From contig CAZSOL010000001.1 in the NCBI GenBank assembly GCA_964608585.1, positions 75,666 to 139,665 on the forward strand: DNA of 64,000 bases, written 5' to 3'. Of this stretch, positions 1 to 56,362 are shown in pieces. The stretch is from an uncultured Candidatus Saccharibacteria bacterium (GTDB taxonomy: Bacteria; Patescibacteriota; Minisyncoccia; Phycocordibacterales; Zambryskibacteraceae). The notes beneath the pieces were generated by a model. That model saw only the letters and a list, made by a program, of their open reading frames with translations, was not told the origin of the DNA and did not search any database. Position 1 is the stretch's first letter. Every line of letters begins with the position of its first letter. Both the position numbers and the translations under genes were made by a program.

Positions 1-1
1 T

Positions 2-2524
2 CTAGCCAAGGATCACACCACTTCTATAGACGATGCATCTATTGAGATACATAAGAGACTTAGAGATGGCGACCTAGCTTCTGCAGAGAACGCTCGCGAG
101 TTCGTGAAGTCTATCTTTGACACTGAGAGATACGACCTCTCTCGTGTTGGACGCTTCCGCTTCAACAATCGCTTTGAGCTAAAGCAGACAGATAAGGAGA
201 TGGATAAGAGAACTCTCTCTCTTGAGGATCTTCGTATTATCGTCTCTCACATCATAACTCTCAACACCACTCCAAACTCAATGGCAGACGACATAGACCA
301 CTTGGGTTCTAGACGTGTTAGGTATGTTGGTGAGCTCTTCCAGCAGAAGATTCGTGTTGGTATGGCTCAGATCAAGAGGAACATCCAAAACAGGATGTCT
401 ACTATTGATACCGACGTCACACTCCCAGTGCAGTTCATCTCTCCTAAGCCACTTCAAGCGAGGATGAAGGAGTTCTTCACCACCAACCAACTCTCGCAGT
501 TTATGCAACAGACCAATGCCCTTGAAGAGCTTGAGCACTTGCGAACTCTCTCAGCCCTAGGTCCTGGAGGTCTTAACCGTGCTCGTGCAGGATACGAGGT
601 GCGCGACGTTCACCCATCTCACTACGGAAGACTTTGCCCTATCCACACCCCAGAAGGTCCAAACATTGGTCTTATCTTGCGTTTAGCTTCTTACGCTAGA
701 GTCAACGACTTCGGCATGATTGAGACTCCTTACGCAGTGGTAAAGGACGGCAAGATTACAAGTGAGATAAAGTATTTAAACGCGCTTGAGGAAGAGCAAT
801 ACAACATTGCTCACGCAGCTACTCCAGTTGAGGGCGACAAGATCGTGCCTGAAATTGTAGATGTTCGTCATAAGGGAGAGCCTCAGACTGTGCGTCGTGC
901 ACAAGTAGACTTCATTGACGTGGCCACCAACCAAGCCTTCTCTATCGCTACATCTTCTATCCCATTCCTTAACCACGATGATGCAAACCGAGCACTCATG
1001 GGTTCTAACATGCAGAAGCAGGGTACTCCATGTATCATCCCAGAGGCACCTCTAGTTGCAACTGGTATTGAGGAGAAGGCAATGAGAGACACAGGTAGAC
1101 TTGTGATAGCTCCAGTAGCCGGCACCATCTCATATGTAGATGGCAAGTCTATCGTGCTTACAGACAATAAGGGAGATGACCACGAGTTTAAGCTTGTGAA
1201 CTTCTCTATGACCAACGGCTTCACCGCTTTCCACCAGAGACCATCTGTTGAGGTTGGACAAAAGGTTAAGAAGGGCGATGTCTTAGCAGACACTTCCTCA
1301 TCTGAGCACGGTCAGTCAGCACTTGGGCAAAACATTTTGGTTGCCTTCATGAGCTGGTCTGGTGCTAACTACGAAGACGCCATCATTGTCTCCGAGAGAT
1401 TGGTGAAGGAGTCCAAGTTCACCTCTATACACATTGAGGACTTTGAGGTCAGTGTTCGAGACACCAAGCTGGGACCTGAGGTTACTACTTGTGACATACC
1501 AAACGTAGGTGAGAGTAAGCTCAAGAACTTGGCAGAGGACGGTATCATCCGTGTTGGAGCAGAGGTTCGCCCTGGAGACATCTTGGTTGGCAAGATTACT
1601 CCAAAGGGTGAGAGTCAGCTAACACCAGAGGAGAGACTCTTGAGGTCACTCTTTGGCGAGAAGGCAAGAGATGTGAAGGATACCTCAAAGAGGATGGAGG
1701 GAGGCAAGCGAGGTCGTGTTATCTCTGTCCAAGTGTTCTCTCGTGAAAGAGGAGACAAGCTAGACAGCGGTATCATCAAGAAGATTTATATTCAAGTTGC
1801 TCAACTAAGGAACGTATCTGTCGGAGATAAGCTCGCAGGACGTCACGGTAACAAGGGAGTTATCTCAAGGATCTTACCTGTTGAAGACATGCCATACATG
1901 GCAGATGGTACTCCTATAGACATCATCCTTACTCCACTCGGCGTGCCAAGCCGTATGAACCTAGGACAAATCTTAGAGCTACACTTAGGTCTTGCTGCTA
2001 ATACTCTAAACTACCAAGCTGTTGTACCTCCATTCGTTGGAGCAAATGATAGCGAGATTAAGGAGGAACTAAAGAAGGCAGGATTCAAAGAAGATGGCAA
2101 GATGAAGCTCTTTGACGGTCGTACTGGAGAGGCCTTTGACCAAGAGATCTCGGTTGGTTACATGTACATCTTGAAGCTCCACCACATGGTTGAGGACAAG
2201 ATACACATGCGTTCTATTGGTCCATACTCACTCATTACCCAGCAACCTTTGGGCGGTAAGGCACAAAACGGAGGTCAGAGGTTCGGAGAGATGGAAGTGT
2301 GGGCACTCCTAGGTCACGGTGTTGGACACACTCTTCGTGAGATGCTTACTATCAAGTCTGACGATATCCAAGGTAGGTCAGCAGCCTTTGACTCTATTGT
2401 TAAGGGAGAGAGGATCCAAGAGCCTGGGACACCAGCATCATTCAACGTCTTAGTGAACAACCTAAGAGGCTTGTCCTTAGATGTGGACGTTAATAAGAGA
2501 CGAGAGGAAACCAATAACCAATAA
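2..2524 (+). CDS. rpoB: DNA-directed RNA polymerase beta subunit, C-terminal ~840 aa (5' end lies upstream of the window)
   Basis: Frame open from window start; motifs GDKLAGRHGNKGVISRILP, DGTPIDIILTPLGVPSRMNLGQILE, NGGQRFGEMEVWAL. Confidence 0.95.
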   Translation, partial: LAKDHTTSIDDASIEIHKRLRDGDLASAENAREFVKSIFDTERYDLSRVGRFRFNNRFELKQTDKEMDKRTLSLEDLRIIVSHIITLNTTPNSMADDIDHLGSRRVRYVGELFQQKIRVGMAQIKRNIQNRMSTIDTDVTLPVQFISPKPLQARMKEFFTTNQLSQFMQQTNALEELEHLRTLSALGPGGLNRARAGYEVRDVHPSHYGRLCPIHTPEGPNIGLILRLASYARVNDFGMIETPYAVVKDGKITSEIKYLNALEEEQYNIAHAATPVEGDKIVPEIVDVRHKGEPQTVRRAQVDFIDVATNQAFSIATSSIPFLNHDDANRALMGSNMQKQGTPCIIPEAPLVATGIEEKAMRDTGRLVIAPVAGTISYVDGKSIVLTDNKGDDHEFKLVNFSMTNGFTAFHQRPSVEVGQKVKKGDVLADTSSSEHGQSALGQNILVAFMSWSGANYEDAIIVSERLVKESKFTSIHIEDFEVSVRDTKLGPEVTTCDIPNVGESKLKNLAEDGIIRVGAEVRPGDILVGKITPKGESQLTPEERLLRSLFGEKARDVKDTSKRMEGGKRGRVISVQVFSRERGDKLDSGIIKKIYIQVAQLRNVSVGDKLAGRHGNKGVISRILPVEDMPYMADGTPIDIILTPLGVPSRMNLGQILELHLGLAANTLNYQAVVPPFVGANDSEIKEELKKAGFKEDGKMKLFDGRTGEAFDQEISVGYMYILKLHHMVEDKIHMRSIGPYSLITQQPLGGKAQNGGQRFGEMEVWALLGHGVGHTLREMLTIKSDDIQGRSAAFDSIVKGERIQEPGTPASFNVLVNNLRGLSLDVDVNKRREETNNQ

Positions 2525-9794: not shown

Positions 9795-11321
9795 CTAGAA
9801 TACTAGCCCAAAAAACTCTTTCCAAATTCTATACATAGCATAGGTGTCTAGCTTGCAGTACTCAAGCATCTCCTTCTCCTTTGCTTCTATTTCAGCTTTG
9901 CTTAGTTTGCCGGAATTTATCTTTCTGTACGAGTCAATGGCATCTGTACCACTCTTGACTCCAAGTTCTGCGTAACTTAGTTCTGGCACAAGGACTGGCA
10001 AGACCTTCTTGATAGATGACTTGCCCTTGAAGTCTGGATGGACGAAGTACTGCTTCTCCACGATATCCTTGAGGTCATAAGTTCTAGCTACTAAGTTTTG
10101 CAGGAAGGCGCTGTACTCAGGTACTATCCTTGCAAGTTCTTTGTTGCGACTGTTCTCAAAGGCTTTGTGCCAAGAGACCACACTGCCTCTCTCTCCAATA
10201 TTCTCTCTCAAGCTCTCCACAATTTTCTTTGATGGGTCACCTTCTAGGATTAAGCACTCCTTATGTATTGGCTCAGAGTCGGCTGACTCAAGAATGTGGA
10301 GTGAGTATTGGAAGACAATATGCTGGTAAGGGCTATACCCATCAAAGGGCGGGATGGGGGTAGGGTAGGTCTCGTAGTCTAGGAAATAGAGGGGGAATTG
10401 GAGAGTCTCAAGCTCCTCCCTTATCTTGTCTGTGTCAGCTATAGCCGAACCCTTCCTATAGGCCATTATTTGGCTCAATTTGGCCCCTTTTAGCCTATCA
10501 TCTACAGGGACGTCCTCTATGGATAGAACCCCCTGATCTATGAGTTCTTCGAGGTATTTCTTGCTATTGCCGATACGATTTAGGTCATGGACACTATACT
10601 CTGGTACATTGGGGTTTATGAGTGCAAAGGCGGTGCAGTGGGATGAGCGACCTTTGTAGTAACAAGGGCAGGGAGCCTTCGGTAGGTCTTCGCTACTTAG
10701 ATACTTATGGGCCTCTTCCATAAGAAGGGTTGCTTGGGGTCTTAGTGCATCTATGGCCTCAGACTTGTCTTCTTCTATAAATAGTTTGCTGAAGTCTAGC
10801 TCTCCGCGCCTTACATATTTTCGGTTTAATCTGATCAAATATTTTTTGTTCAGCTTCACACCGCATTCTTCTATAACGTTTGTTTGGAAGGCGAGATCGT
10901 GTTCAAACTGCAGTTCTTTCTTTTTGTTTATTCTGACTTCACCGTTCTCATCCTCTTCCTCAGATGAAGACATCTTTATTTCAAAAATGTCATAGGCCCC
11001 CGCATCCTCATTCCACTTCATAACATCCGCCGCTGCTAGATACTTGTCTGTAGAGAATACTGCTTGGAAGATGATTGGATGTTTTTCCGAGATCAGCTTC
11101 TGGGTTAGCTCTTGAGCCCCAGGGCTACGTCTTTCTACAAGGAAACCATTGGGGAACTTGCCCCGAGCTAACTCTTCTATCTCATTACCTTGAACGGCCA
11201 GAGATAGCTCAAATTCTGAAACTTCAAGCTTTGAGTAGTCTTCCTTCCTATGGTTTTTAAACCAAACATTGTTTGGGCATTCTCGGTAAAGTATGTAGTC
11301 AGTCTTAGAAAGTTTATACAC
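9795..11321 (-). CDS. DUF2779-family protein with an N-terminal PD-(D/E)xK (RecB-like) nuclease-type domain
   Basis: N-terminus MYKLSKTDYILYRECPNNVWFK; D..EIK motif (AAADVMKW...YDIFEIKMSS); C-terminal FLDYETYPTPIPPFDGYSPYQHIVFQYSLH matches the DUF2779 signature. Confidence 0.6.
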   Translation of the reverse strand: MYKLSKTDYILYRECPNNVWFKNHRKEDYSKLEVSEFELSLAVQGNEIEELARGKFPNGFLVERRSPGAQELTQKLISEKHPIIFQAVFSTDKYLAAADVMKWNEDAGAYDIFEIKMSSSEEEDENGEVRINKKKELQFEHDLAFQTNVIEECGVKLNKKYLIRLNRKYVRRGELDFSKLFIEEDKSEAIDALRPQATLLMEEAHKYLSSEDLPKAPCPCYYKGRSSHCTAFALINPNVPEYSVHDLNRIGNSKKYLEELIDQGVLSIEDVPVDDRLKGAKLSQIMAYRKGSAIADTDKIREELETLQFPLYFLDYETYPTPIPPFDGYSPYQHIVFQYSLHILESADSEPIHKECLILEGDPSKKIVESLRENIGERGSVVSWHKAFENSRNKELARIVPEYSAFLQNLVARTYDLKDIVEKQYFVHPDFKGKSSIKKVLPVLVPELSYAELGVKSGTDAIDSYRKINSGKLSKAEIEAKEKEMLEYCKLDTYAMYRIWKEFFGLVF

Positions 11322-12017: not shown

Positions 12018-12459
12018 TGTTTTGTTTGTTACTCAAGAAGTATATCACCCCAACTGAAGTGATAGAAATGAGGATACTTGCTAACACGTCTAGCAGGTGG
12101 TGGACCCCAACTCCGACTCTAGATAAGGCTACTACTAAGGCTACGGCCCACATTAACAACCCGATTTTTTTGTTAAAAATGGTTGAGATTCCTGCCAAAG
12201 TCGCGACAAGAAGAGTGTGGTCGGAGGGGAAGCCGTTGTCAGCCACATGCTCTATGAGAGGTGTAATCCCATCTACGACAAAGGGTCTTGGATTGTTGTA
12301 TAAGCTTCTAGCTAGTAGCCCTAAGACATAAGAAACAGGTAGAGCCAAGACACTTATCTTTATAAATTTTCTCCTATCTGTATTGAAAAACACAAAGACG
12401 AAGATGCCTACAGGTACAATCCATAAGTATTTTGCGCCGAAGATTAATAAATGTTCCAT
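11986..12459 (-). CDS. PAP2-family phosphatase (undecaprenyl-diphosphate or lipid phosphatase type)
   Basis: PAP2 motifs FPSDHT and SRVGVGVHHLLDV; multi-TM; overlaps the downstream gene by 32 nt. Confidence 0.7.
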   Translation of the reverse strand: MEHLLIFGAKYLWIVPVGIFVFVFFNTDRRKFIKISVLALPVSYVLGLLARSLYNNPRPFVVDGITPLIEHVADNGFPSDHTLLVATLAGISTIFNKKIGLLMWAVALVVALSRVGVGVHHLLDVLASILISITSVGVIYFLSNKQNNESRTTKQDE

Positions 12460-13034
12460 TAGAAAGGTAGGGTAAAAGTTAGTTTGCTGTCGTTCATATC
12501 CTCCCAGTTTGAGGTATCTAGTTTTATTTCATAGAGTTTGCCCCCCTCTTTGAAGGTTAATTTGTTGTTCTCTCGAGCAAAGTCGTATAGCTCTTTGGTG
12601 AGCCTTACATCATCAAGGCAGTATTGTCTTATCTTCTCTATCTCGCCCTTCTTCCACCACTCTATAGCTTCTAGGCCGTGGCCACTCTTCTTCTTCCCGA
12701 GAGTCCCTTCGGCTAGTTGGTCTAGCTTCATCCTTCTACCATAGGCTTTTTGTATCTCCTTTAGGATATCCAAGCTCTTTAGTTTCGTCAGGTCTCCGGG
12801 GTAGTACTTGTTTAGTATGGGTATGTCAAAGTGGTCAGAGTTGAAGCCTATGAGCACGTCTGCTCTCTCTATGATTGGCCAGAGAAGACCAAGCTCTTCT
12901 TGTAAGTAGCTCGTATAAGCATCTGTCTCAGAGTCCCAAACTCCGATAAGAGAGAGGTCTAAGAGAGTTGGGTCACTCCCACCAACGTCGGCGAAGACGT
13001 TCTTCGTCTCAATATCAAAAACAATTTTACGCAT
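12459..13034 (-). CDS. DEDD-type 3'-5' exonuclease, RNase H-like fold (PolB-exonuclease-like, DNA_pol_B_exo2 type)
   Basis: IVFDIETKN (Exo I), GFNSDHFDIPIL (Exo II), YCLDDVRLTKELY (Exo III); a paralogue lies at 53500..54195. Confidence 0.7.
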   Translation of the reverse strand: MRKIVFDIETKNVFADVGGSDPTLLDLSLIGVWDSETDAYTSYLQEELGLLWPIIERADVLIGFNSDHFDIPILNKYYPGDLTKLKSLDILKEIQKAYGRRMKLDQLAEGTLGKKKSGHGLEAIEWWKKGEIEKIRQYCLDDVRLTKELYDFARENNKLTFKEGGKLYEIKLDTSNWEDMNDSKLTFTLPF

Positions 13035-13791
13035 TCGGCAAAAGGTTGTGAGTTTCTAAGAAGTCGCGCATAGTAATGTCGCCCATACCAAAGCCAACCG
13101 CAGGCACCGGCTCTACATCAAAGAGCTCAAGCAAGTTGTCGTACCGACCTCCTCCAGCTAATGCTCTGGGGTTCTCGCTGTTTTTATCAAAGACTTCAAA
13201 GACGATGCCGGTATAGTAAGTCTGCCCTCGAGCCAAGGAGTCGTCGAAGACTATATTTGGAGAGACATCCTTCACATCGTCTAGGTTGCAGTTGTTCACT
13301 CTTATCTCAAAGTCTTCATCCTTGGCACCAAACTCCTTCATCACTTTGTAGAGGAGAGAGAGCATTTCTTTGTCGCCATCTAATCCTGAGACTCCCAAGA
13401 GATCTGCATTGAGTTGCCAGTGCTCACGCTTCCTGCCTCTTTGAGGCTTCTCGTATCTAAAGAGGTTGGGGATAGAGAACCAGCGAAGAGGGAACTTGAG
13501 ACCCTTCCTCTTGCCAGCTACCATACGGGCAAGAGTGGGAGTCATCTCGGGGCGTAGAGTTACACTCCTCTCGCCTCTGTCTATGAAGGTGAAGGTTTGC
13601 TCGCTGACTATTTCTTCGCCAGATTTTTCTGTATAAAGCTCTGTAGGCTCAAGGGGAGACGCACCATACTCTTGGTAACCCTCTCTCTCAGCAACTTTCT
13701 TCCACACACCGAAGATATAGTTTTGTATTGCCATATCCTCGGGGTAGAAGTCGCGCACGCCCTTGTATGGCTCTGTACTTAGCTTTGACAT
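13027..13791 (-). CDS. Histidyl-tRNA synthetase-like class II catalytic core (254 aa) lacking an anticodon-binding domain
   Basis: Motif 2 TLRPEMT...FRYEKPQRGRKREHWQLNADLLG; motif 3 LAGGGRYDNL; GFGMGDITM; ORF ends about 20 aa later and overlaps the exonuclease start by 8 nt. Confidence 0.75.
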   Translation of the reverse strand: MSKLSTEPYKGVRDFYPEDMAIQNYIFGVWKKVAEREGYQEYGASPLEPTELYTEKSGEEIVSEQTFTFIDRGERSVTLRPEMTPTLARMVAGKRKGLKFPLRWFSIPNLFRYEKPQRGRKREHWQLNADLLGVSGLDGDKEMLSLLYKVMKEFGAKDEDFEIRVNNCNLDDVKDVSPNIVFDDSLARGQTYYTGIVFEVFDKNSENPRALAGGGRYDNLLELFDVEPVPAVGFGMGDITMRDFLETHNLLPNA

Positions 13792-13888
13792 ATAGAGATT
13801 ATATCAAATTTAGACCAAACAGAGCCATTGTTGACTAGATTATGACGTTGTTATATATTGCGTCAGGACATTCAACTGAGAGGTCTTT

Positions 13889-14059
13889 GTGAGTACAGAG
13901 TCAGGTAGTGACATCGGTCGTGGTAGTGGGAAACCAGACTGGGTATTTGTTTTGCTGGGTTGTGCTGTACTTCTGGCTGCGGTGCTCGTGATTGGTGTTG
14001 TCGGTCCGCATCTCTTCAAGGTTGAGAGGGTGATACCTCCAGTTCGGACTCCGAGGTAA
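13889..14059 (+). CDS. Candidate small hydrophobic peptide (56 aa, GTG start), not in the ORF track
   Basis: GAGAGG SD 5 nt upstream of GTG; in-frame TGA just upstream; TM-like WVFVLLGCAVLLAAVLVIGVVG; GC-richer than flanks; intrinsic terminator follows. Confidence 0.4.
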   Translation: MSTESGSDIGRGSGKPDWVFVLLGCAVLLAAVLVIGVVGPHLFKVERVIPPVRTPR

Positions 14060-16927: not shown

Positions 16928-17470
16928 CTATCTTTCCTCAAGTCTACCGTCTTCGTACACAAAGGTCTTTGTTGTTGAGACACTTGGGTCTACTGCCATA
17001 GCCTCGCTTGGTAATCTATCTAGGTACCTAACAGTGATCATTCCTGCTTCGTCTATACTTACAGACTCTGGAGAAATCCTGTCTCCAACAAAGATTGCGT
17101 TAGAGCCCTTATATTCCACATTTCCAGATACATAAGCTATTAGGAAGACGAATGTGCCAGAGCCTCCTCCTTCTTGTATCACCAAGCCTACAGCATCGTT
17201 TTTCTTGTCTCCGTTAATGTCTCCGTATTCTATCTTTTTTGTGAGGAGAGTCTCTATACTTATAGCAGAGTTTGGAGAGATTTTGGTTGTCGCCTTACCA
17301 TTAGTTAGTTTTATTTCCTCTCCCTCAAAGTTGAAGGTCCCGTTGGCTATATCTGGCTTTGAGACAGTCTCCATAATTTCTACACGAGGCTCCTTTGTTT
17401 GCTTATCTTTGTGCCAAAAGAAGCTGAATCCCAATGCAACAAGAACAACGACAAGTAGTAACTTATTCAT
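16928..17470 (-). CDS. Secreted or membrane-anchored hypothetical protein (180 aa)
   Basis: N-terminal signal or TM MNKLLLVVVLVALGFSFF; no recognisable domain. Confidence 0.4.
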   Translation of the reverse strand: MNKLLLVVVLVALGFSFFWHKDKQTKEPRVEIMETVSKPDIANGTFNFEGEEIKLTNGKATTKISPNSAISIETLLTKKIEYGDINGDKKNDAVGLVIQEGGGSGTFVFLIAYVSGNVEYKGSNAIFVGDRISPESVSIDEAGMITVRYLDRLPSEAMAVDPSVSTTKTFVYEDGRLEER

Positions 17471-18228
17471 GGTTGTATTATCTCACGGATGAGCTTTTTA
17501 GTCTCCTCTATATCTTTGACAGGAACGCATTGAATACCTGTCTCCTTAGCCGGCTCGTCATTGCCTCCTTCATAAAGAGCATCACCGACAAACATCATTT
17601 TGGGTATATCAATACCTAGCTCTTTGCTGGCTCGTCTAATGCCGTAGGCTTTGTTGATCCCTTTCTTCGTGACGTCTATAGAAGTCATCCCACCCATATG
17701 GATCTCAAACTCAGGTATCTTGTCTTGCAAGAACTTTATAAGTATTTCGCGCTTCCTTCGGTCCGGGTCCCACTTCTCCTTCTCCTTTACTGGAGCATTT
17801 TGCCCCAAGGCAGAGAAGGTGATCTCTACATCTCTATCCTCAATCCTTTCTCCATAAGGGAAGTCGGGTAAGTTGAAGGGAGCTCTCTCTAATGCGTAGT
17901 AGAAAGCTGAGAAGATCCTATCCTTGTCTTCTTGTGAGAGCAGGTCGGCATATATGAGCTCTTCTCTATTGCCATTAAATTTGTACATACTAGACCCTGC
18001 TCCTGGCATGATGAAGAAGTTCGCAAAAGTCTCAGGAGTTAAGTTCATCCTCTTTATAACTTGCTTATCAAACTGCTTTAGATGCCCTCCAGATATAATA
18101 ATCACCTTGCGACGACGAAGGAGTTCTACAAGCAACCCAGCCATCTCTTCGTCTATGGGTGACTTACTTATAGCTAGAGTGCCATCCAGGTCGAAGATGA
18201 CAACCTCTTTGTCTCCATAGGCACTCAT
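17467..18228 (-). CDS. HAD-superfamily hydrolase (IIB or phosphomannomutase-like)
   Basis: VVIFDLDGTLA motif I; FVGDALYEGGNDEPA motif IV region; start overlaps the upstream GH130 gene stop. Confidence 0.6.
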   Translation of the reverse strand: MSAYGDKEVVIFDLDGTLAISKSPIDEEMAGLLVELLRRRKVIIISGGHLKQFDKQVIKRMNLTPETFANFFIMPGAGSSMYKFNGNREELIYADLLSQEDKDRIFSAFYYALERAPFNLPDFPYGERIEDRDVEITFSALGQNAPVKEKEKWDPDRRKREILIKFLQDKIPEFEIHMGGMTSIDVTKKGINKAYGIRRASKELGIDIPKMMFVGDALYEGGNDEPAKETGIQCVPVKDIEETKKLIREIIQP

Positions 18229-20120
18229 GAGAGGATTTTGAGTAAGTTTTTAAGTGAGAGAGTGGCCACTCCTACAACAGCATCAGCTCCTCCATAGTAA
18301 AGATAGATCTTGTCTCCACGTATGATGTTCCCACAAGGGAAGACCACCTTAGGTACAACCCCCTTCTTCTCATAATCTTCTTCTGGTTCAAAAAGTGGGA
18401 CTGCTGTACGAGCAAGGATATTAGTTGGATCTTTAAGATCTAAGAGGACGGCTCCAACTCTATAAGTACTTGTCTCAGATACTCCGTGGTAGAAGAGGAG
18501 CCAACCCTTAGGAGTTTTCATCGGAGGTCCAGAGATACCAACTTTGTGTCCATCCCACATACCACGTCTTGGTTGTATAAGTTCTATACAGCGGACAACC
18601 TTCTCCTTCTCAAAATCAAGAGAGCTCAATATATCGGCACAAACACTTTCGTTTATACGATGGAGGAATATGTATCCTGCAGGGGTCTTCTCCGGTATGA
18701 TGCTGGCATCTTTGTTTGTAACATCCATTGGAGTGATAATGATAGGCATACTCCATGCTCCCCACTTCTTCTTCAAAAAGTTTTCTTTAGAGATTTTGGT
18801 CACTGCGACTCTTGGTACATAGCCGTCATAGGCTGTGTAGGTCATAAGAATATCTCTACCTATCTGCATGAGTCTTGGATCTTCACAACCAGAGTTGCCT
18901 TGCTGATGCTTCTTCTCAAAGTCAGCACGAGGTGTGTAGATAGGCTCATCACTTCTTTCTTTGATGACGAAGCCGTCTTTACTTGAGGCGTATCCAAAGG
19001 TTGATGTGTCGTCATCACCCATAGCTCTATAGATAATGTGGATCATCCCTCCAAGGTCTATTGCTCCGGGGTTTAAGGTGCCGTGGGCTTCCCAGTTTTT
19101 GCCTTGTCTTGGGGTTATTATTGGGTTCCCAACAAAACGAGTGGTGAAGTGCTTCTTGTCAGGAAGCATGCTTTTTATAAGATCGTTTAGTCTTATGGTT
19201 GCTTTGCAGGAGTGAGTGTCTGCTCCACCATAATAGACCTCTAGGTTAGTTCCTTTTATAAGCGCTCCTGATGGGAAGACAATGTTTGGTATGAGTCCTG
19301 TGGTCTCATAGTATAGCTCTGGGACGAGGAAGGCTCCTTTGGTTCTACCTATGATGAGTCTTGGGTTCTTCTTATCAAGCAAGACTGCCTCAATACCGAA
19401 GGTGGTGTTGCCTTGTCCATAGTGGCTTATGTGAGAGTAGAGGACCAGCCAGCCAAATTTGGTCTTAAGTGGAGGTGCACCTAGCTCAACGTGGTCGTCT
19501 CCAAGTCTGTGGAAGTTTATGATGTGCGAGTCCTTCTCGCTGTACCACTTGTCCCAGAATTCTTTGGACCAAAGATCTTCTATCTTATTGAACTCGGCAT
19601 AAGCGATATTGGATGGAGGTCTGTCTGTGTCTATGGTAAGTAGGGCTGCATACTTACCATTAACCTTTTCTGGAAAGAGGCCCATAGCTTTAGCGTTGAA
19701 GGGGGTAACCAAGTGCTTCTCATCTACTGTCTTCATATCCTTGCTTATAGCCACAGCCACTTTGATATTGTCGGCATTGAAGGGGTAGTCTCCTAAGGCG
19801 GTATAGAAGGTGTAGTACTTCCTACCAATTTTTGTAACCCTTGGGTCTTCGCAACCAAACTTTTCAAAATCTTTTTCTGGAACGATGAAGGGGGCTCTGT
19901 CGAAGAAGTCCTTGCCGTTCTTTGTAGTAGCACGACCAATGATAGAGCGATGTATCTTAGGCTCTTCTAAAAGCTCTCTCTCAGAGAGTGCTCTGTAAGC
20001 AACATGAGTGAGAGCACCGCTCTTCACAGGAGACCAGTTGAAGGCTGCTGCCGCCTCCCAAGGGTGTTCTTTCCTTGGAGAGAGTAGGGGATTATCTTCT
20101 GATCTTTTTACAGTGAACAT
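18225..20120 (-). CDS. Tandem double GH130-family (PF04041-like) glycoside phosphorylase/glycosidase
   Basis: Two repeats of the NPLLSP...W..NP[SG]A...YRA core (AAAFNWSPV...HVAYRA and GTLNPGAID...IIYRAMG). Confidence 0.7.
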   Translation of the reverse strand: MFTVKRSEDNPLLSPRKEHPWEAAAAFNWSPVKSGALTHVAYRALSERELLEEPKIHRSIIGRATTKNGKDFFDRAPFIVPEKDFEKFGCEDPRVTKIGRKYYTFYTALGDYPFNADNIKVAVAISKDMKTVDEKHLVTPFNAKAMGLFPEKVNGKYAALLTIDTDRPPSNIAYAEFNKIEDLWSKEFWDKWYSEKDSHIINFHRLGDDHVELGAPPLKTKFGWLVLYSHISHYGQGNTTFGIEAVLLDKKNPRLIIGRTKGAFLVPELYYETTGLIPNIVFPSGALIKGTNLEVYYGGADTHSCKATIRLNDLIKSMLPDKKHFTTRFVGNPIITPRQGKNWEAHGTLNPGAIDLGGMIHIIYRAMGDDDTSTFGYASSKDGFVIKERSDEPIYTPRADFEKKHQQGNSGCEDPRLMQIGRDILMTYTAYDGYVPRVAVTKISKENFLKKKWGAWSMPIIITPMDVTNKDASIIPEKTPAGYIFLHRINESVCADILSSLDFEKEKVVRCIELIQPRRGMWDGHKVGISGPPMKTPKGWLLFYHGVSETSTYRVGAVLLDLKDPTNILARTAVPLFEPEEDYEKKGVVPKVVFPCGNIIRGDKIYLYYGGADAVVGVATLSLKNLLKILS

Positions 20121-20134
20121 AATTTATATTTATT

Positions 20135-21238
20135 CTACACCCTACCTTCGTTAGTAAGCCAGTTTAGTAATTCTTTTAAGTTGGCAGTAGCTGCACAGAT
20201 ATACTTGTCTCCTCCACCATAGTAGACATGGAGGTCGTCTCCTATGACCACTGCACCAGAGGCGTAGATTACTCCGGGTTTGCTGTCGTTCTCATAGTGC
20301 ATGTCTGGAGAAAGTATGGGGGAAGGAGATCGGTGGGTTATCTTGGTTGGATCATTTATATCAAGTAGCATCGCACCAAGTTTGTACTTATTGGGGTCGT
20401 TCTTATCCATCGCATGGTACAGAAGGAGCCACCCCTTGTCTGTCCTTATGGGTGGGGCCGCTGCTCCACGCATCCAGTTGTCCCAGTGAGTCTCTCGACC
20501 GCCTTTGGTAGGGGCATTCTGGCTTTGAATGAACTTGGTTCTCCCTAGAGAGTCAAGGTTTTCTACATAGTCTATCTTTATCTCTGGAGAGATGCTGTGT
20601 AGGATGGCGAATTTACCATCAATCTTTTCTGGGAAGAGTACCCAGTTCTTCTCCACGGTGTTTGGCGCAGAGAGGAAGAGAGGCTTCTTCCAGTTCCATT
20701 TGCCTTGCTTAAAGTCGGTGAGACCGATGGAGGTGAGAGCAATACGCACGGAGTGCCAGCCTTCAAAGGCTGTGTAGCTCATATACACCTTGTCTTCTAT
20801 CCTTACGGTGCGAGGGTCCTCACACCCTCCCCAGCCACCCCCAGACACATACAAAGCAGGGTTATACTTCTTCTCTCTTTCGTCCACTACATTGGTGGAG
20901 CTTGGTGTCTGATGATAAACGGGGTAGTTGTAAGGCTTCTCAAAGTTCTTGCCATCATCACTCCTTGCGTGGCCGATCTTTGAGAGACCATCTAGCCCTA
21001 TAGCTCTGTATAAGAGATGCACGGCTCCCTCGTCGTCCATAAAGGCTCCAGGGTTAAAGACGGAGTGTGTCTCCCAGTCGTTTAAGCCGTGTGGTGAGAG
21101 TAGTGGATTGTGAGCAACTCTCTGTAGAGGGAAGTGATGGGCAAGTCTTTTTATAGGCTCGGCAAGCAACCACAACACAAACAATAGGAAAACAATTATT
21201 CCCGCAATCAGAAGTTCATTGAAAAGAAGCTCACTCAT
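20135..21238 (-). CDS. GH130-family glycoside phosphorylase/glycosidase with an N-terminal TM anchor
   Basis: RVAHNPLLSPHGLNDWETHSVFNPGAFMDDEGAVHLLYRAIG. Confidence 0.7.
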   Translation of the reverse strand: MSELLFNELLIAGIIVFLLFVLWLLAEPIKRLAHHFPLQRVAHNPLLSPHGLNDWETHSVFNPGAFMDDEGAVHLLYRAIGLDGLSKIGHARSDDGKNFEKPYNYPVYHQTPSSTNVVDEREKKYNPALYVSGGGWGGCEDPRTVRIEDKVYMSYTAFEGWHSVRIALTSIGLTDFKQGKWNWKKPLFLSAPNTVEKNWVLFPEKIDGKFAILHSISPEIKIDYVENLDSLGRTKFIQSQNAPTKGGRETHWDNWMRGAAAPPIRTDKGWLLLYHAMDKNDPNKYKLGAMLLDINDPTKITHRSPSPILSPDMHYENDSKPGVIYASGAVVIGDDLHVYYGGGDKYICAATANLKELLNWLTNEGRV

Positions 21239-45352: not shown

Positions 45353-48037
45353 ATGAAGGAGTACGACCCAAAGGATATAGAAACCAAGTGGCAGGCGGAG
45401 TGGGAGAAGAGTGGAATATACAAAGCCAAAGGAAAGGGGGAGAAGTATTACTCTCTTATTGAGTTCCCGTACCCTTCTGGAGACGGGCTTCATGTAGGTC
45501 ACCCAAGGCCTTATATAGGTATGGATGTTGTCTCTAGGAAGAGGCGTATGGAGGGTTACGACGTGCTTTACCCCATAGGTTGGGACGCCTTTGGTCTTCC
45601 TACGGAGAACTATGCCCTAAAGACTGGCAAAGACCCAAGACAAGTTACTAAAGAGAATTCGGAGAACTTCAAAAGACAGATAAAGTCTCTAGGCATATCT
45701 TTTGACTGGTCTCGTGAGGTGAACACCACTGACCCCAAGTACTACAAGTGGACGCAGTGGCTCTTCCTTAAGTTTTTGGAGGAGGGCTTGGCTTATAAAG
45801 CCAAGATGCCTATCAATTGGTGCCCAAAGGACAAGATTGGTCTTGCTAATGAGGAGGTGGTGGATGGTAAGTGCGAGAGGTGTGGTACAGAGGTAGAGCT
45901 AAGAGAGCGTGAGCAGTGGATGCTCAAGATTACTGCGTACGCAGAGCGACTCCTTAAAGACTTGGACGAGGTAGACTACCCCGAGCGAGTGAAGGCTCAA
46001 CAGAGGAATTGGATAGGCAAGAGCGAGGGCGCGCTTATAAAGTTCGACGATATCGAAGTATTCACAACTCGACCCGACACCATATACGGAGCAACCTTTA
46101 TTGTTGTGTCTGGCAAAGAGGATAGATTTACTGGTAGGTATGTGACGAACCCCGCCACGAAGGAGAAGATTCCCGTCTGGGAAGCAGAGTACGTACTCTC
46201 TGACTATGGCACCGGAGCTATTATGGCTGTACCTGCGCACGATGAGAGAGACTTTGAGTTTGCTAAGAAGCACGATTTGCCTATAAAGGAAGTGGTTATC
46301 GAGAGGATGATAGATAAAAGTAATCCTCACGTAGAAGGAAAGAAAATAATTTTTAGAGACGCAATTATTGCAGCAGTTAGGAATCCTAAGGACGGCAAAT
46401 ACATTTGCTTGAAGTGGAAGAAGCAACCATGGACCACCTTTGTCATGGGAGGTATTGAGGGAGAAGAGGATCCTGTTGTTGCAGCATTGAGGGAAGTCAA
46501 AGAAGAAACTGGATATAAAAATATAAAACATATACAAACTCTAAAGGATGCACAGTCTGAGTTTTTTGCTGCACATAAGGATGTAAATAGGGTAGCTCAC
46601 ACAAGAAACTTAATCTTTGAGCTAATAGACGAAGAGCGCGAGGAAATCTCGAACGAGGAAAAGGATACCCACGAGATAGTCTGGATGTCTGTTGATGAAA
46701 TTTTGGCTACCAAGATGACCCACAGTGAGATGCCGATATTTGTGGATTGGTTTAACGGGACAAGTAACCCCTTTGTAGGTATTGGTGTGTTAATAAATTC
46801 TGGTAAGTTTGATGGCTTAGAGTCGGAAGATGCTAAGAAGAAGATTACTAAGGCGGTTAAAGGCGAGTGGGTTACAAAGTTTAAGCTTAGAGACTGGGTC
46901 TTTAGCCGTCAGAGATATTGGGGAGAGCCTATACCAGTCATCCTTTGTAAGAAGTGCGGGATAGTGCCAGTACCAGAGAGTGACCTACCTGTAGAGCTTC
47001 CAGTTGTGGAGAAGTACGAGCCGACAGAAACAGGCGACTCCCCACTAGCCAAGATTGAGAGTTGGGTCAATGTGAGATGTCCACTTTGTGGTGATAAGGC
47101 CAAGAGAGAGACAGACGTAATGCCCAACTGGGCTGGCTCCTCTTGGTACTTCATGCGCTATACAGACCCAGAGAACGATAAGGAATTCGCTTCCAAGAAG
47201 GCCTTGAAGCACTGGATGCCAGTAGACTGGTATAACGGTGGCATGGAGCACACGACTTTGCACCTCTTGTACTCAAGATTTTGGAACAAGTTCCTCTTTG
47301 ATTTGAAATTAGTGCCTACAAGCGAGCCATACAAGAAGCGCACCTCACATGGACTCATCTTGGCAGAGGGAGGAGAGAAGATGAGTAAGTCCAAAGGCAA
47401 TGTGGTGAACCCAGACGATATTGTAGATCGTTTCGGTGCGGATACCTTACGACTCTACGAGATGTTTATGGGCCCATTTGAGCAGGCTATAGCTTGGAGT
47501 GAGTCTAGTCTTGTCGGACCAAGGCGTTTTATAGAGAGGGTGTGGAAGTTGAGAGGCAAGGTTGGTGAGGTAGAACCAAGCAACTTTCTAATGCACTCCA
47601 CAATCAAGAAGGTATCAGAAGACATAGAGAGCATGGGCTTCAACACAGCCGTATCTGCCATGATGGTTTGGGCTAATGAGTTAGATAAGAGGGAGGTTGT
47701 CTCTAGTGTTGAATATGAGACCTTACTCAAGCTTCTCTCTCCTTTTGCTCCACATGTGACAGAAGAGCTTTGGGCTAACCTTGGTCACAAAGAGTCTATC
47801 CATGAGAGTGAGTGGCCAAAGTGGGAAGAGAAGTATTTGGTCCAAGACGAGGTAACTATAGCTGTACAGATAAACGGGAAGGTGAGAGGGAAACTTGTAG
47901 TTTCTAGGAATACAGAAGAAGCAGAAGTAGAGAAGTTGGCTAAGCAACTACCAAATATTCTTAAGTGGATAGAGGGTAAAGATGTGAAGAAAGTGATAGT
48001 CGTCCCTCAAAAAATAGTAAATATTGTTATCGCTTGA
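45353..48037 (+). CDS. leuS: Leucyl-tRNA synthetase with an embedded Nudix hydrolase domain and a drastically shortened CP1 editing region
   Basis: HVGH (HIGH-type) and KMSKS; LeuRS blocks WCPKDKIGLANEEV, TTRPDT, GTGAIMAVPAHDERDFEFA, RDWVFSRQRYWGEPIP; Nudix box GGIEGEEDPVVAALREVKEETGY at about aa 366-388. Confidence 0.9.
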   Translation: MKEYDPKDIETKWQAEWEKSGIYKAKGKGEKYYSLIEFPYPSGDGLHVGHPRPYIGMDVVSRKRRMEGYDVLYPIGWDAFGLPTENYALKTGKDPRQVTKENSENFKRQIKSLGISFDWSREVNTTDPKYYKWTQWLFLKFLEEGLAYKAKMPINWCPKDKIGLANEEVVDGKCERCGTEVELREREQWMLKITAYAERLLKDLDEVDYPERVKAQQRNWIGKSEGALIKFDDIEVFTTRPDTIYGATFIVVSGKEDRFTGRYVTNPATKEKIPVWEAEYVLSDYGTGAIMAVPAHDERDFEFAKKHDLPIKEVVIERMIDKSNPHVEGKKIIFRDAIIAAVRNPKDGKYICLKWKKQPWTTFVMGGIEGEEDPVVAALREVKEETGYKNIKHIQTLKDAQSEFFAAHKDVNRVAHTRNLIFELIDEEREEISNEEKDTHEIVWMSVDEILATKMTHSEMPIFVDWFNGTSNPFVGIGVLINSGKFDGLESEDAKKKITKAVKGEWVTKFKLRDWVFSRQRYWGEPIPVILCKKCGIVPVPESDLPVELPVVEKYEPTETGDSPLAKIESWVNVRCPLCGDKAKRETDVMPNWAGSSWYFMRYTDPENDKEFASKKALKHWMPVDWYNGGMEHTTLHLLYSRFWNKFLFDLKLVPTSEPYKKRTSHGLILAEGGEKMSKSKGNVVNPDDIVDRFGADTLRLYEMFMGPFEQAIAWSESSLVGPRRFIERVWKLRGKVGEVEPSNFLMHSTIKKVSEDIESMGFNTAVSAMMVWANELDKREVVSSVEYETLLKLLSPFAPHVTEELWANLGHKESIHESEWPKWEEKYLVQDEVTIAVQINGKVRGKLVVSRNTEEAEVEKLAKQLPNILKWIEGKDVKKVIVVPQKIVNIVIA

Positions 48038-53066: not shown

Positions 53067-53503
53067 TGACTTATATAGAACCTTATTACATAAACCTTAT
53101 CATCGCCCTTGCTCTTGGAGTGATCATCGGGCTTGAGCGCACCATTGCTCACAAGACAGCGGGCATGCGCACATATGGGCTTGTCTCTATGGGCTCTTGT
53201 CTCTTCATTATCCTCTCTCAAATAGCTGTAGCTAACAGTGGTTTGTATGACTTTGACCCCATGCGTACAGCAGCGGGCGTCATTATGGGTATAGGCTTCC
53301 TCTGTGGAGGGGTTATCATCTTCCAGAACCATGAGCTTACAGGACTCACCACAGCGGCAGGTCTCTGGGTCTCAGCTGGTATTGGTATGGCGGTAGGCTT
53401 TGGACAAGTCGGCCTTGCAACCTTCGCCACTATAGCCACTCTACTCGTCTTCACTCTCCTCTGGACAGTGGAACATCTTATAATCAAGAGGAAAGAGAGA
53501 TGA
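53063..53503 (+). CDS. mgtC: MgtC/SapB-family membrane protein
   Basis: GLERTIAHKTAGMRTYGLVSMGSCLF and four TM helices typical of the MgtC N-domain. Confidence 0.7.
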   Translation: MMTYIEPYYINLIIALALGVIIGLERTIAHKTAGMRTYGLVSMGSCLFIILSQIAVANSGLYDFDPMRTAAGVIMGIGFLCGGVIIFQNHELTGLTTAAGLWVSAGIGMAVGFGQVGLATFATIATLLVFTLLWTVEHLIIKRKER

Positions 53504-54195
53504 CTAAACTATTTTTTGATATAGAGACGCTTCCGGCTGACAAGGACTCGTTACCTAAGCTTAAGTATCTTTATGACAAAAAAGTATCAAAGTTAGATCC
53601 AGATTCCGAAAAAGTAATAGAATCTTTTGAGAAATTTGTAGAGAAGACATCCTTTGATGGAGCCTTCGGCCGTGTGTGCTGTATTGCTTATGCGATAAAC
53701 GATAAGCCAGCAGAGTGTCTCTCTGGAGACGAGAAGGAGATAGTACAGAAGTTTTGGCAGATTGCGGGTAAGGCCGATCTTATAATCGGTCACAACATTA
53801 GAGACTTTGACCTACCCTTCGTTATGCAGAGATCTGCTATCTTGGGAGTCAAGCCAACTTGGAACAAGTTTGAGGAACCCGGTAAGAAACCTTGGGATAT
53901 GGTCAAGTTCCTCTCCTTTGCTAGATACAAGAACGCACCAATCTTTGACACTATGCACGAGTGGAGCAATTGGGGCGATACTAGAAACAACAAAAGCTTA
54001 GAGCATCTGGCTTTAGCGATGGGGATACCAACGCCTAAGGAGGGTATAGACGGCTCACAGGTGGCCAAGTTTTTTGAAGAGGGAAAGATCAAAGAAATTT
54101 GCGACTATTGCATGAGAGATGTAGAGACCACAAGAGATGTCTATAAGAGGATGACTTTTGAGGGCTTGCCGGAGACCGAATCAGAACCATTTTAA
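53500..54195 (+). CDS. DEDD-type 3'-5' exonuclease, PolB-exonuclease-like (paralogue of 12459..13034)
   Basis: LFFDIETLP, IGHNIRDFDLPFV, YCMRDVETTRDVY. Confidence 0.7.
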   Translation: MTKLFFDIETLPADKDSLPKLKYLYDKKVSKLDPDSEKVIESFEKFVEKTSFDGAFGRVCCIAYAINDKPAECLSGDEKEIVQKFWQIAGKADLIIGHNIRDFDLPFVMQRSAILGVKPTWNKFEEPGKKPWDMVKFLSFARYKNAPIFDTMHEWSNWGDTRNNKSLEHLALAMGIPTPKEGIDGSQVAKFFEEGKIKEICDYCMRDVETTRDVYKRMTFEGLPETESEPF

Positions 54196-54196
54196 T

Positions 54197-54778
54197 ATGG
54201 ATAAGGAGGGTGAGTTAAAGAAAATAAGAGACGAAGTGATAGATATAGGAGGTGAGTTGGCTGGTCTGAGAAGGTCTGGTGCTTATTTGCCCGTAATAGG
54301 AGAGGGGAGCCACTCACCCAAGATAATGTTTATCGGTGAGGCCCCAGGGGAGAAGGAGTCAAAGACAGGCAGACCCTTTGTTGGTCGAGCGGGGCAACTT
54401 CTAAACGAGCTTCTAGAGTATATAAACATAAAGAGAGAAGATGTGTACATCACCAACATTGTGAAGGATCGCCCTCCGAAGAACAGGGATCCATTACCAG
54501 ATGAGATAGACTTATACGCTCCACTCCTAGATAAGCAGATAGAGGTGATGAAGCCTGAGGTGGTGGCTACTCTAGGGCGCTTCTCTATGGAGTATGTGAT
54601 GAAGCGGTATGGATTAGAGAGTGAGCTGGGGCCAATAAGTGCTCTCCACGGCAAGGTCTTCGACTCTCCTCAAGGATTTAAGGTTGTACCCCTCTTCCAC
54701 CCCGCCGCCGCTATATATAACCAACACTTAAAGCCAGAGCTCTTCCTAGACTTCAAAGTTCTGAAAACCCTTATTTAG
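54197..54778 (+). CDS. Family-4 uracil-DNA glycosylase
   Basis: GEGSHSPKIMFIGEAPGEKE, GRPFVGRAGQLL, HPAA; start taken at MDKEGE right after the exonuclease stop. Confidence 0.8.
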   Translation: MDKEGELKKIRDEVIDIGGELAGLRRSGAYLPVIGEGSHSPKIMFIGEAPGEKESKTGRPFVGRAGQLLNELLEYINIKREDVYITNIVKDRPPKNRDPLPDEIDLYAPLLDKQIEVMKPEVVATLGRFSMEYVMKRYGLESELGPISALHGKVFDSPQGFKVVPLFHPAAAIYNQHLKPELFLDFKVLKTLI

Positions 54779-54795
54779 TGATATATTAGGCTCAA

Positions 54796-56358
54796 ATGAA
54801 ATCAGAGGAAATACGTAAGCGGTTCTTAACCTTTTTTGAGAAGCACGGGCACAAGGTGGTGCCATCTTCACCCTTGGTGACAGACGACCCATCTGTCCTC
54901 TTTACCACCGCAGGCATGCAACAATTCAAGCCTTATTACTTAGGAAAGCCCTCTCCTTATGGGCAGAATGTCGTCTCTATACAGAAGTGCGTCAGAACTT
55001 CGGATATTGAGGAAGTGGGTGATGAGAGGCATCTAACCTTCTTTGAGATGCTGGGGAACTTCTCCTTCGCTGGATACTGGAAGGAGAAAGCCATCAAGCT
55101 TGCCCACGAGTTTGTAACCAAAGAGATGGGACTCACTATAGATTACGTGACTATATTTGAGGGAGAGGAGGGTGTACCAAGAGATGATGAGTCAGAAAGA
55201 ATTTGGAAGTCTATAGATCCAAACATAAAGATTAAAGAGTTTGGTCGAGCAGACAACTTCTGGGGCCCAACTGGGGAAGAGGGTCCTTGCGGTCCAACTT
55301 CAGAGATTTATGTAGGGGGTATAGAGATCTGGAACTTGGTCTTCAACGAGTTCTACCAGAACAAAGACAAAACCTTAAAGCCATTAGAGATGAAGGGGAT
55401 AGACACAGGCATGGGTCTTGAGCGCCTTGCGATGGTAGTACAAAAAGTTCCAACCGTGTTTGATACAGATTTGTTTGATAAACCAAAAACGAGAGAGGAG
55501 AGGATCGTTGCCGACCATGCGCGTACAGCTGTTTTTATGATTATGGATGGAGTTAGACCATCTAATACCGAACGAGGATATGTTCTAAGAAGAATTATTA
55601 GACGAGCCTTTGTTAATTCTAACAACTTTCCCGAAGCAACCCAAAGAGTAATTGATCTTTATGGTTTGGATAGTAAGGAGATCCTCACTGTTGTCCAAGA
55701 AGAGATACAGAAGTTTGCAGAAGCATTAGCACAAGGAACCAAAGAAGCAAAGAAGGGGGGCGACCCATTTATCCTTTTTACCTCTTATGGCTTACCACTA
55801 GAGATTATAAAAACAATTGGTATCAAAATTGACGAAAAGGATTTTGAAGAGAAGTTCAAAAAACACCAAGAGCTGTCTAAGGCAGGTGCAGAGCAGAAGT
55901 TTAAGGGAGGCTTGGCGGGGCACTCGGAGATTGAGGTTAAGTACCACACTGCTACACACCTCTTACACCAAGCACTTAGAGATGTTTTGGGGGCTGAAGT
56001 GAGTCAGAAGGGCTCCAACATTACTCCGGAGAGACTCCGCTTTGACTTCTCCTTCCCTCGCAAGATGACAGATGAGGAGAAGAAGAAGGTAGAGGAGATT
56101 GTAAACTCTAAAATAGAAGAGGCCCTGCCTGTAGAGAACCTCGTGATGAACAAAGAGGAGGCTATAAACTCAGGTGCACTGCACTTCTTTGACCAGAAGT
56201 ATCCAGATCAAGTCTCGGTCTACAAGATAGGCGAGTACTCCAAAGAGTTTTGTGGTGGACCTCACGTCAAGAACACAAGTGAGATAGGAAAAATAAAAAT
56301 AGACAAGGAAGAAGCCGTATCGGCAGGTGTTCGTCGTATCAAAGCTACGTTACAATAA
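54796..56358 (+). CDS. alaS: Alanyl-tRNA synthetase, compact 520-aa form (catalytic + tRNA-recognition + editing-type HxxxH/CxxxH motifs; no long C-terminal extension)
   Basis: FTTAGMQQFKPYYLG, WGPTGEEGPCGPTSEIY, editing-type HTATHLLHQAL and CGGPHV. Confidence 0.85.
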   Translation: MKSEEIRKRFLTFFEKHGHKVVPSSPLVTDDPSVLFTTAGMQQFKPYYLGKPSPYGQNVVSIQKCVRTSDIEEVGDERHLTFFEMLGNFSFAGYWKEKAIKLAHEFVTKEMGLTIDYVTIFEGEEGVPRDDESERIWKSIDPNIKIKEFGRADNFWGPTGEEGPCGPTSEIYVGGIEIWNLVFNEFYQNKDKTLKPLEMKGIDTGMGLERLAMVVQKVPTVFDTDLFDKPKTREERIVADHARTAVFMIMDGVRPSNTERGYVLRRIIRRAFVNSNNFPEATQRVIDLYGLDSKEILTVVQEEIQKFAEALAQGTKEAKKGGDPFILFTSYGLPLEIIKTIGIKIDEKDFEEKFKKHQELSKAGAEQKFKGGLAGHSEIEVKYHTATHLLHQALRDVLGAEVSQKGSNITPERLRFDFSFPRKMTDEEKKKVEEIVNSKIEEALPVENLVMNKEEAINSGALHFFDQKYPDQVSVYKIGEYSKEFCGGPHVKNTSEIGKIKIDKEEAVSAGVRRIKATLQ

Positions 56359-56362
56359 AGGA

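Follow-up and report, generated by a model that had tools for sequence, protein, structure and literature searches.

Two adjacent genes on the reverse strand of a 64,000-nucleotide (nt) stretch of DNA (positions 75,666 to 139,665 of contig CAZSOL010000001.1, assembly GCA_964608585.1), henceforth called the window, were analysed in the present study. The upstream gene, here designated hisS-mini, specifies a 254-amino acid (aa) relative of histidyl-tRNA synthetase (HisRS), and the gene that follows it encodes a 191-aa stand-alone 3'-5' exonuclease. An original prediction, made from the letters of the sequence, had described the former product as a class II core without an anticodon-binding domain (ABD) and with only a short insertion domain, the open reading frame (ORF) of which overlaps that of a DEDD exonuclease by 8 nt; both parts of this description were reproduced, the first by the family matches and the structural alignment presented here and the second by the positions of the two ORFs (Table 1).

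The 254-aa product was found to match the Pfam family PF13393 (tRNA-synt_His, E = 4e-36, in two stretches) as well as PF00587, and no Pfam match to HGTP_anticodon (PF03129) was obtained for it. When compared with NCBIfam, it scored 235.9 bits against hisS (TIGR00442, cut-off 286.75 bits) and 156.8 bits against hisZ (TIGR00443, cut-off 271.65 bits), hisS thereby being ahead by 79 bits. The best matches among solved structures are genuine HisRS enzymes, namely that of Thermoplasma acidophilum (1wu7, E = 6.8e-62) and those of Trypanosoma (3hri and 3hrk, E values to 1.7e-60), followed by weaker matches to bacterial-type HisRS (~1e-25 to 1e-28) and to HisZ (~1e-18 to 1e-20). In the alignment with 1wu7, residues 2-169 of the 254-aa protein correspond to residues 2-166 of the Thermoplasma enzyme and residues 178-249 to residues 255-325, so that the insertion domain between motifs 2 and 3 is reduced from ~88 to ~8 residues and the ABD (1wu7 ~330-434) is without counterpart; the linker that follows motif 3 is also gone, the protein terminating 16 residues past GFGMGD (233-238). 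Compared to canonical class IIa HisRS of the Thermoplasma/trypanosomatid type, the protein therefore shares motifs 1-3, the HisA (RGxxYYTG) and HisB (GGGRYD) elements and the LRPEMT histidine loop, yet differs from it in lacking the insertion domain and the ~100-residue C-terminal HGTP ABD, in carrying K99 and K/R121, and in having lost E97.

Table 1. Positions, within the window, of hisS-mini, the adjacent exonuclease gene and their sequence elements
Feature	Position	Strand	Basis
hisS-mini, 254-aa HisRS catalytic core without insertion domain and without ABD	13027..13791	-	ORF, PF13393, TIGR00442, 1wu7
Stand-alone DEDDy 3'-5' exonuclease, 191 aa, PolB-proofreading-like	12459..13034	-	ORF, PF13482, PF10108
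8-nt hisS/exonuclease overlap, ATGCGTAA	13027..13034	-	direct sequence reading
HisA (LARGQTYYTGIVFE, residues 186-199), HisB (GGGRYD, 213-218) and motif 3 (GFGMGD, 233-238)	13078..13236	-	alignments
Scar of deleted insertion domain, residues 169-178; ~8 residues versus ~83-88 in full-length relatives	13258..13287	-	alignments
Motif 2 and its loop, residues 112-126 (RYEKPQRGRKREHWQ), including K121	13414..13458	-	alignments
Loop residues 94-99 (KRKGLK), counterpart of Thermus thermophilus Gly94'-Pro99'	13495..13512	-	alignments; PMC4357726
Extended -10-like element, TGATATAAT, ending 6 nt ahead of the hisS ATG	13798..13806	-	direct sequence reading

Genuineness and ancestry of hisS-mini

A search over 5.8 billion proteins returned at least 8000 homologues of the 254-aa product, the best 120 of which were inspected. 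These 120 display 74-100% identity to the query, are 253-258 aa in length with the exception of two (288 and 316 aa), and originate from more than 100 independent assemblies of Parcubacteria, Zambryskibacteria and Patescibacteria, an identical protein (P0001) also being present in the searched database. The bare-core architecture was furthermore encountered in 18 species-level genomes (L001-L018), among which median identity amounts to 81% for TypA, 76% for the product of hisS-mini, 71% for the exonuclease, 65% for TruB, 52% for a DsbA-like protein and 46% for PAP2; hisS-mini is about as conserved as the gene for the translational GTPase TypA. It is also under strong purifying selection, with a ratio of non-synonymous to synonymous substitution rates (dN/dS) of 0.03-0.08 in the five of 45 pairs for which dS was unsaturated.

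The notion that the 254-aa ORF represents an assembly error, a frameshift or a decaying pseudogene can draw on one relative (L077) with a frameshifted ABD, but it is hardly credible in view of an ORF of equal size (253-258 aa) in more than 100 independent assemblies, of the low dN/dS ratio, and of the result that a hidden Markov model (HMM) built from 20 ABDs of the clade revealed no ABD remnant in a six-frame translation of the window. A frameshift or sequencing error concealing a C-terminal domain, against which the original prediction had to be checked, is thereby dismissed. In L077 itself (1..1458 of CAZKGX010000006.1) the HisRS ABD is split by the frameshift and continues in another frame at 1222-1458, which reflects an assembly error or, alternatively, a domain in the course of being lost. 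Many TPA_asm records of metagenome-assembled genomes with a Parcubacteria/Zambryskibacteria-type locus (L001, L003, L005, L007 and others) are titled 'uncultured Candidatus Saccharibacteria bacterium'; considering the 75-83% identity to Zambryskibacteria HisRS, this label looks generic or wrong.

Next, a scan of species-representative genomes of related Patescibacteria was performed, yielding 80 loci (L001-L080) with up to 10 kb of flanking sequence on each side, in which the neighbours that are retained comprise the exonuclease, the DsbA-like protein, TruB and TypA. Four HisRS architectures occur at this locus: a full enzyme of ~423-438 aa with an insertion domain (+83 residues) and a PF03129 ABD (L061, L065, L067); a core plus ABD of ~355 aa from which the insertion domain has been deleted (L026, L031, L033, L034, L044); an ABD-less core of ~283-339 aa in which the insertion domain is shortened (+28 to +77 residues; L024, L032, L070); and the bare core of 253-266 aa (the window and L001-L023). 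The ABD is present in the syntenic orthologues L026, L034 and L061, and by position the 254-aa gene is orthologous to the full-length hisS that related genomes carry. When 1.84 billion cluster representatives were searched exhaustively with HMMER, the nearest relatives were likewise mostly HisRS proteins of 410-445 aa, with 50-68% identity over the core.

When the core sequences were placed in a neighbour-joining tree, the 57 ABD-less proteins grouped in one clade which is nested among the 22 proteins with an ABD, and the ABD was therefore probably lost once. Near-complete deletion of the insertion domain is found at ~4 separate places in the tree, two of which are in lineages that keep the ABD; the tree carries no support values and these numbers of losses are approximate.

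Active site and predicted contacts to the tRNA acceptor end

Class II motifs 1, 2 and 3 together with the HisRS-specific elements HisA and HisB are aligned position by position with 1wu7 and 4rdx. Among 43 family members, D71-R72, E82, T84, R112, E114, Q117, R120, R122, Q126 and D130 are invariant, as are R188, Y192, Y193, G213-G215, R216, Y217, G233, F234, G237 and D238, which encompass GGGRY and GFGMGD. The segments KGVRDFY, LRPEMTPT, FRYExPQRGRxREHWQLN, RGxxYYTG, GGGRYD and GFGMGD are essentially invariant across all architectures, each of which also keeps the residues that bind histidine and ATP (E82, T84, R112, E114, Q126, R188, Y192, Y193 and G213-D218). Conservation of this active site, the examination of which had been proposed along with the original prediction, is thus evident.

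Considering that residue numbering from ~94 to 126 equals that of T. thermophilus HisRS, the tRNA contacts seen in the crystal structure of that enzyme can be mapped directly. In T. thermophilus, E114 contacts A76, Q117 the backbone of C72/A71, R120 contacts C74 and R122 the phosphate of G-1 (PMC4357726); all four residues are the same in the family, and invariant. The residue that contacts G1 (T. thermophilus R115) is represented by K, R or Q, and R7 corresponds to K10 in the 254-aa protein. D71-R72-G73 is the counterpart of the tripeptide 70'DRG72', by which the other subunit touches G-1 (PMC4357726).

Seven positions of the core discriminate ABD-containing from ABD-less proteins, and three of these alter charge at known tRNA-contact elements. 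Position 121, located between R120 and R122, is K or R in all 57 ABD-less proteins, whereas the 22 ABD-containing ones have L, V or T; E97 is replaced by S, G or N in ABD-less proteins, and A/G99 by K in 56 of the 57. The latter two positions belong to the counterpart of T. thermophilus Gly94'-Pro99', a loop in contact with the end of the tRNA D-stem (PMC4357726). The net result is a gain of ~3 positive charges per subunit, and this pattern of substitution is suggestive of basic residues at two tRNA-contact loops partly making up for the lost ABD.

Of the options offered by the original prediction, a minimal genuine HisRS relying on the acceptor stem fits best, based on positional orthology, invariance of the catalytic residues and of E114, Q117, R120 and R122, and purifying selection. 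The 254-aa protein is accordingly read here as a putative working, and probably the only, HisRS of the organism, reduced to the class II catalytic core, a reading to which we assign a probability of roughly 0.7. Such an enzyme would dimerise through motif 1 and produce histidyl-adenylate in an intact HisRS active site, would select tRNA-His by its acceptor end alone (G-1 and its 5' phosphate, the -1:73 pair, G1, C74 and A76) without reading the anticodon, and would be partly repaid by K99, the loss of E97 and K/R121 for the binding energy that disappeared with the ABD. HisRS is known to charge mini- and microhelices, the anticodon contributes little as a determinant, tRNA-His is the only tRNA with G-1, and the insertion-domain contact mutants R197A and K209A retain at least half of the activity (PMC4357726), because of which HisRS appears to be the synthetase most able to lose both domains.

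Several points weigh against this reading. The score of the protein stays below the curated hisS equivalog cut-off, as is expected for a sequence from which ~170 residues are missing. Throughout the clade, full-length members included, the position of the second G-1-pocket glycine (T. thermophilus G73') is occupied by D, E, G or N, and in Caulobacter a double aspartate at the pocket dipeptide accompanies loss of G-1 recognition (PMC4357726). No tRNA-His was found in the window or the 80 related loci, and an encoded G-1 as well as C73 are consequently assumptions. The searches for a second hisS and for an orphan ABD were confined to the 64-kb window and the ±10 kb flanks of relatives. Since the ABD was lost once, the charge changes described above constitute a single evolutionary event, to which no statistical weight can be given. 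A poor model of the 254-aa core was obtained with AlphaFold, its predicted local distance difference test (pLDDT) value being 56.6 from a shallow alignment (43 sequences at >=74% identity), and it lends no structural support. Finally, the reading does not account for the strong conservation of the hisS-exonuclease operon, detailed below.

If hisS-mini does specify a working synthetase, it would be the natural counterpart of engineered catalytic-core fragments and urzymes, and a natural enzyme for which the acceptor stem alone suffices to choose the tRNA (the 'operational RNA code'), which is testable directly. To our knowledge, it would, at 254 residues, be smaller than any other natural synthetase for a standard amino acid, and no description of a natural ABD-less HisRS in candidate phyla radiation (CPR) bacteria was found in open-access papers and bioRxiv. 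An ABD-less N-terminal catalytic fragment of Escherichia coli HisRS reportedly activates histidine and charges tRNA (Augustine and Francklyn, 1997). Such fragments and urzymes are the closest functional analogues, but they are laboratory constructs with greatly reduced efficiency, in contrast to a natural protein that is maintained by purifying selection across a large clade and in which the insertion domain has also gone; for HisRS urzymes, it is reported that the catalytic core without ABD still activates histidine (PMC3060492). Intermediates are supplied by sister lineages, in which the enzyme is full, without insertion domain, without ABD or without both, and the clade-specific basic substitutions are specific candidates for the recovery of lost binding energy.

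Alternative readings and the adjacent exonuclease

One alternative, which we deem unlikely, holds that the 254-aa protein is a HisRS paralogue with no part in translation, be it HisZ-like, a histidine sensor or regulator or a ligase that serves another acceptor, and that the real HisRS is encoded elsewhere in the genome. This would agree with the absence of both tRNA-binding appendages, with the score below the hisS cut-off, with the label 'ATP phosphoribosyltransferase regulatory subunit' that the NCBI pipeline gives to several members, and with searches confined to the window and flanks, but it is contradicted by the advantage of hisS over hisZ, by synteny with full-length hisS, and by the invariance of the residues for contact with A76, with C74, with the backbone of the acceptor and with the phosphate of G-1, which are needless for a function that does not involve tRNA. 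Moreover, CPR bacteria are generally without amino-acid biosynthesis; a Pfam scan of 46 window ORFs turned up neither hisG (PF01634) nor any other histidine-biosynthesis gene, and neither the window nor the ±10 kb flanks of relatives yielded a second HisRS-like sequence to a family HMM. HisZ proper (TIGR00443; 1z7m, 3od1) resembles the 254-aa protein in being derived from HisRS and in making no use of an ABD, yet is devoid of adenylation activity (PMC9437257), whereas catalytic and tRNA-contact residues are retained in the 254-aa protein, for which the E values against solved HisZ structures are also far weaker than the best HisRS match. The HisZ-like option of the original prediction is therefore not upheld, given the bit scores, nearest relatives that are full-length HisRS, and the lack of hisG among the scanned ORFs. 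A split enzyme, the ABD of which would have persisted as its own gene elsewhere and would join the core in trans, is highly improbable: split synthetases occur in nature and relatives were examined over ±10 kb around the gene only, but the HMM of 20 ABDs found no stand-alone copy in six frames of the window or of the ABD-less loci, where its only matches were the C-termini of other class IIa synthetases, and the post-motif-3 linker has itself vanished.

The interpretation of hisS-mini as a genuine synthetase gene also bears on annotation. TIGR00442 is a phylogenomic marker used in completeness estimates. Because of the sub-cut-off score against this model and the frequent naming as HisZ by the NCBI pipeline, surveys may call HisRS missing in many Patescibacteria, and the HisZ name may falsely imply regulation of histidine biosynthesis in a large group of these bacteria.

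With regard to the neighbouring gene, its 191-aa product matches PF13482 and PF10108 in Pfam and PHROG 403 ('DNA polymerase exonuclease subunit', E = 5e-20), and no NCBIfam family was matched. It contains the motifs Exo I (FDIET; D7, E9), Exo II (NSDHFD; D70) and Exo III (YCLDD; Y138, D142), and the DEDDy residues D7, E9, D70, Y138 and D142 are invariant in 42 homologues. Its fold is RNase H-like, with polymerase proofreading domains as top structural matches; the fold alone matches RNase D too, and sequence profiles favour DNA-polymerase exonuclease families. Compared to known stand-alone PolB-exonuclease-like DEDD exonucleases and related domains (PF10108, PF13482; the MrfB core 8un9; polymerase proofreading domains), it is distinguished by its 191-aa length without fused polymerase, helicase or TPR, by the missing NCBIfam assignment and by its position in a conserved operon with hisS. 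A second stand-alone PolB-exonuclease-like protein of 231 aa (PF10108, E = 3e-23; PHROG 25228) is encoded at 53500..54195 (+) and shows 23% identity to the hisS-adjacent one; its gene overlaps the start of that for a UDG-superfamily glycosylase (54158..54778, +), just upstream of alaS.

The exonuclease gene follows hisS in 69 of the 73 loci with enough downstream sequence, being absent downstream of the three deepest-branching ABD-containing HisRS genes (L063, L068, L076) and in L048, and the pairing occurs with all four HisRS architectures. It constitutes a real clade-wide operon, and since the exonuclease also follows full-length hisS, the pairing predates the truncation. In the window, the exonuclease ATG sits within the final hisS codons (CCGA-ATGCGTAA), and among relatives the junction is an overlap of 4-20 nt in 36 of 69 loci and measures <=25 nt in 55 of 69. 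In the five-gene array of the window, neighbouring genes overlap or abut throughout (hisS/exonuclease 8 nt, exonuclease/PAP2 1 nt, PAP2/DsbA 32 nt, DsbA/DUF2779 adjacent), and for this reason the 8-nt overlap is weak evidence for a functional link. The original prediction had regarded the combination of the two genes as unusual and had called for a survey of its conservation: the operon withstood this survey, yet its suspected tie to the truncation of HisRS did not, as full-length hisS has the same neighbour and the exonuclease is unchanged.

Further results argue against a special functional link between HisRS and the exonuclease. That the two proteins act as a pair on tRNA-His, with the exonuclease supplying tRNA binding or trimming or checking the 3' end, seems improbable to us: besides the equal presence of the pairing with full-length HisRS and the uninformative overlap, no exonuclease position tells lineages with an ABD from those without one and neither its length nor its charge differs between the two, sequence profiles and top structural matches alike point to DNA-polymerase exonuclease and proofreading domains, and no HisRS-exonuclease fusion exists among ten long HisRS relatives, the extra domains of which are NUDIX, GNAT, ankyrin, tRNA_SAD, ASL_C2 or Spt5. 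More doubtful still is a two-protein tRNA-His module, serving tRNA binding or 3'-end trimming and quality control, that perhaps enabled the loss of both tRNA-binding domains; if true, it would represent a new partnership of an aminoacyl-tRNA synthetase with a DEDD nuclease. Under the preferred reading of a self-sufficient minimal HisRS, the 191-aa protein would be an active DEDDy exonuclease in its own right, of the type that proofreads for DNA polymerases, co-transcribed with hisS in an operon that would date from the time of the full-length enzyme, and its job would most likely be DNA repair or proofreading, not aminoacylation.

Upstream region and other genes of the window

Sequence reading revealed no Shine-Dalgarno sequence ahead of hisS; given the proximity of the -10-like element to the ATG (Table 1), the transcript may be leaderless or nearly so. 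A scan for consensus promoters in the hisS upstream region gave no enrichment compared to shuffled sequences, and no leader RNA or T-box was found upstream of hisS by an Rfam scan, which detected only three tRNAs across the window. Between hisS and truB, and in the direction of truB, lies a 56-aa ORF (13889..14059, +) with a hydrophobic, transmembrane-like stretch, which is called as a gene on Logan contig L081 too. At its other end, the hisS-exonuclease-PAP2-DsbA array is closed by a gene for a 508-aa protein (9795..11321, -) with a C-terminal DUF2779 (E = 4e-38) and a weak match to NCBIfam UU173 (64.7 bits, below the cut-off of 225).

The window is otherwise an ordinary CPR core-genome segment, containing rpoB, rpoC, dnaG, rpoD, typA, tgt, uvrABC, leuS, alaS, mnmA and a ribosomal-protein/rpoA block. 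In its LeuRS (45353..48037, +; 894 aa; TIGR00396, 917 bits), a NUDIX domain (PF00293, E = 1.6e-15, residues 335-466) is inserted beside or within the CP1 editing domain, and a distant HisRS relative of 666 aa (P0158) combines a HisRS core with NUDIX and has no ABD match, so NUDIX-synthetase fusions recur. The AlaRS (54796..56358, +; 520 aa) exceeds the cut-off of NF002436, short-form alanine--tRNA ligase (544.7 bits versus 529), and is therefore of the known short type without the C-terminal part; neither Pfam nor NCBIfam gave a match for the two ORFs next after alaS (56327..57532, 401 aa, and 57547..58830, 427 aa). Two adjacent genes of the GH130 (beta-1,4-mannooligosaccharide phosphorylase) family, specifying proteins of 631 and 367 aa (18225..21238, -), adjoin a gene for a phosphomannomutase-like HAD hydrolase (17467..18228), thus forming a small mannoside-utilisation cluster amid informational genes.

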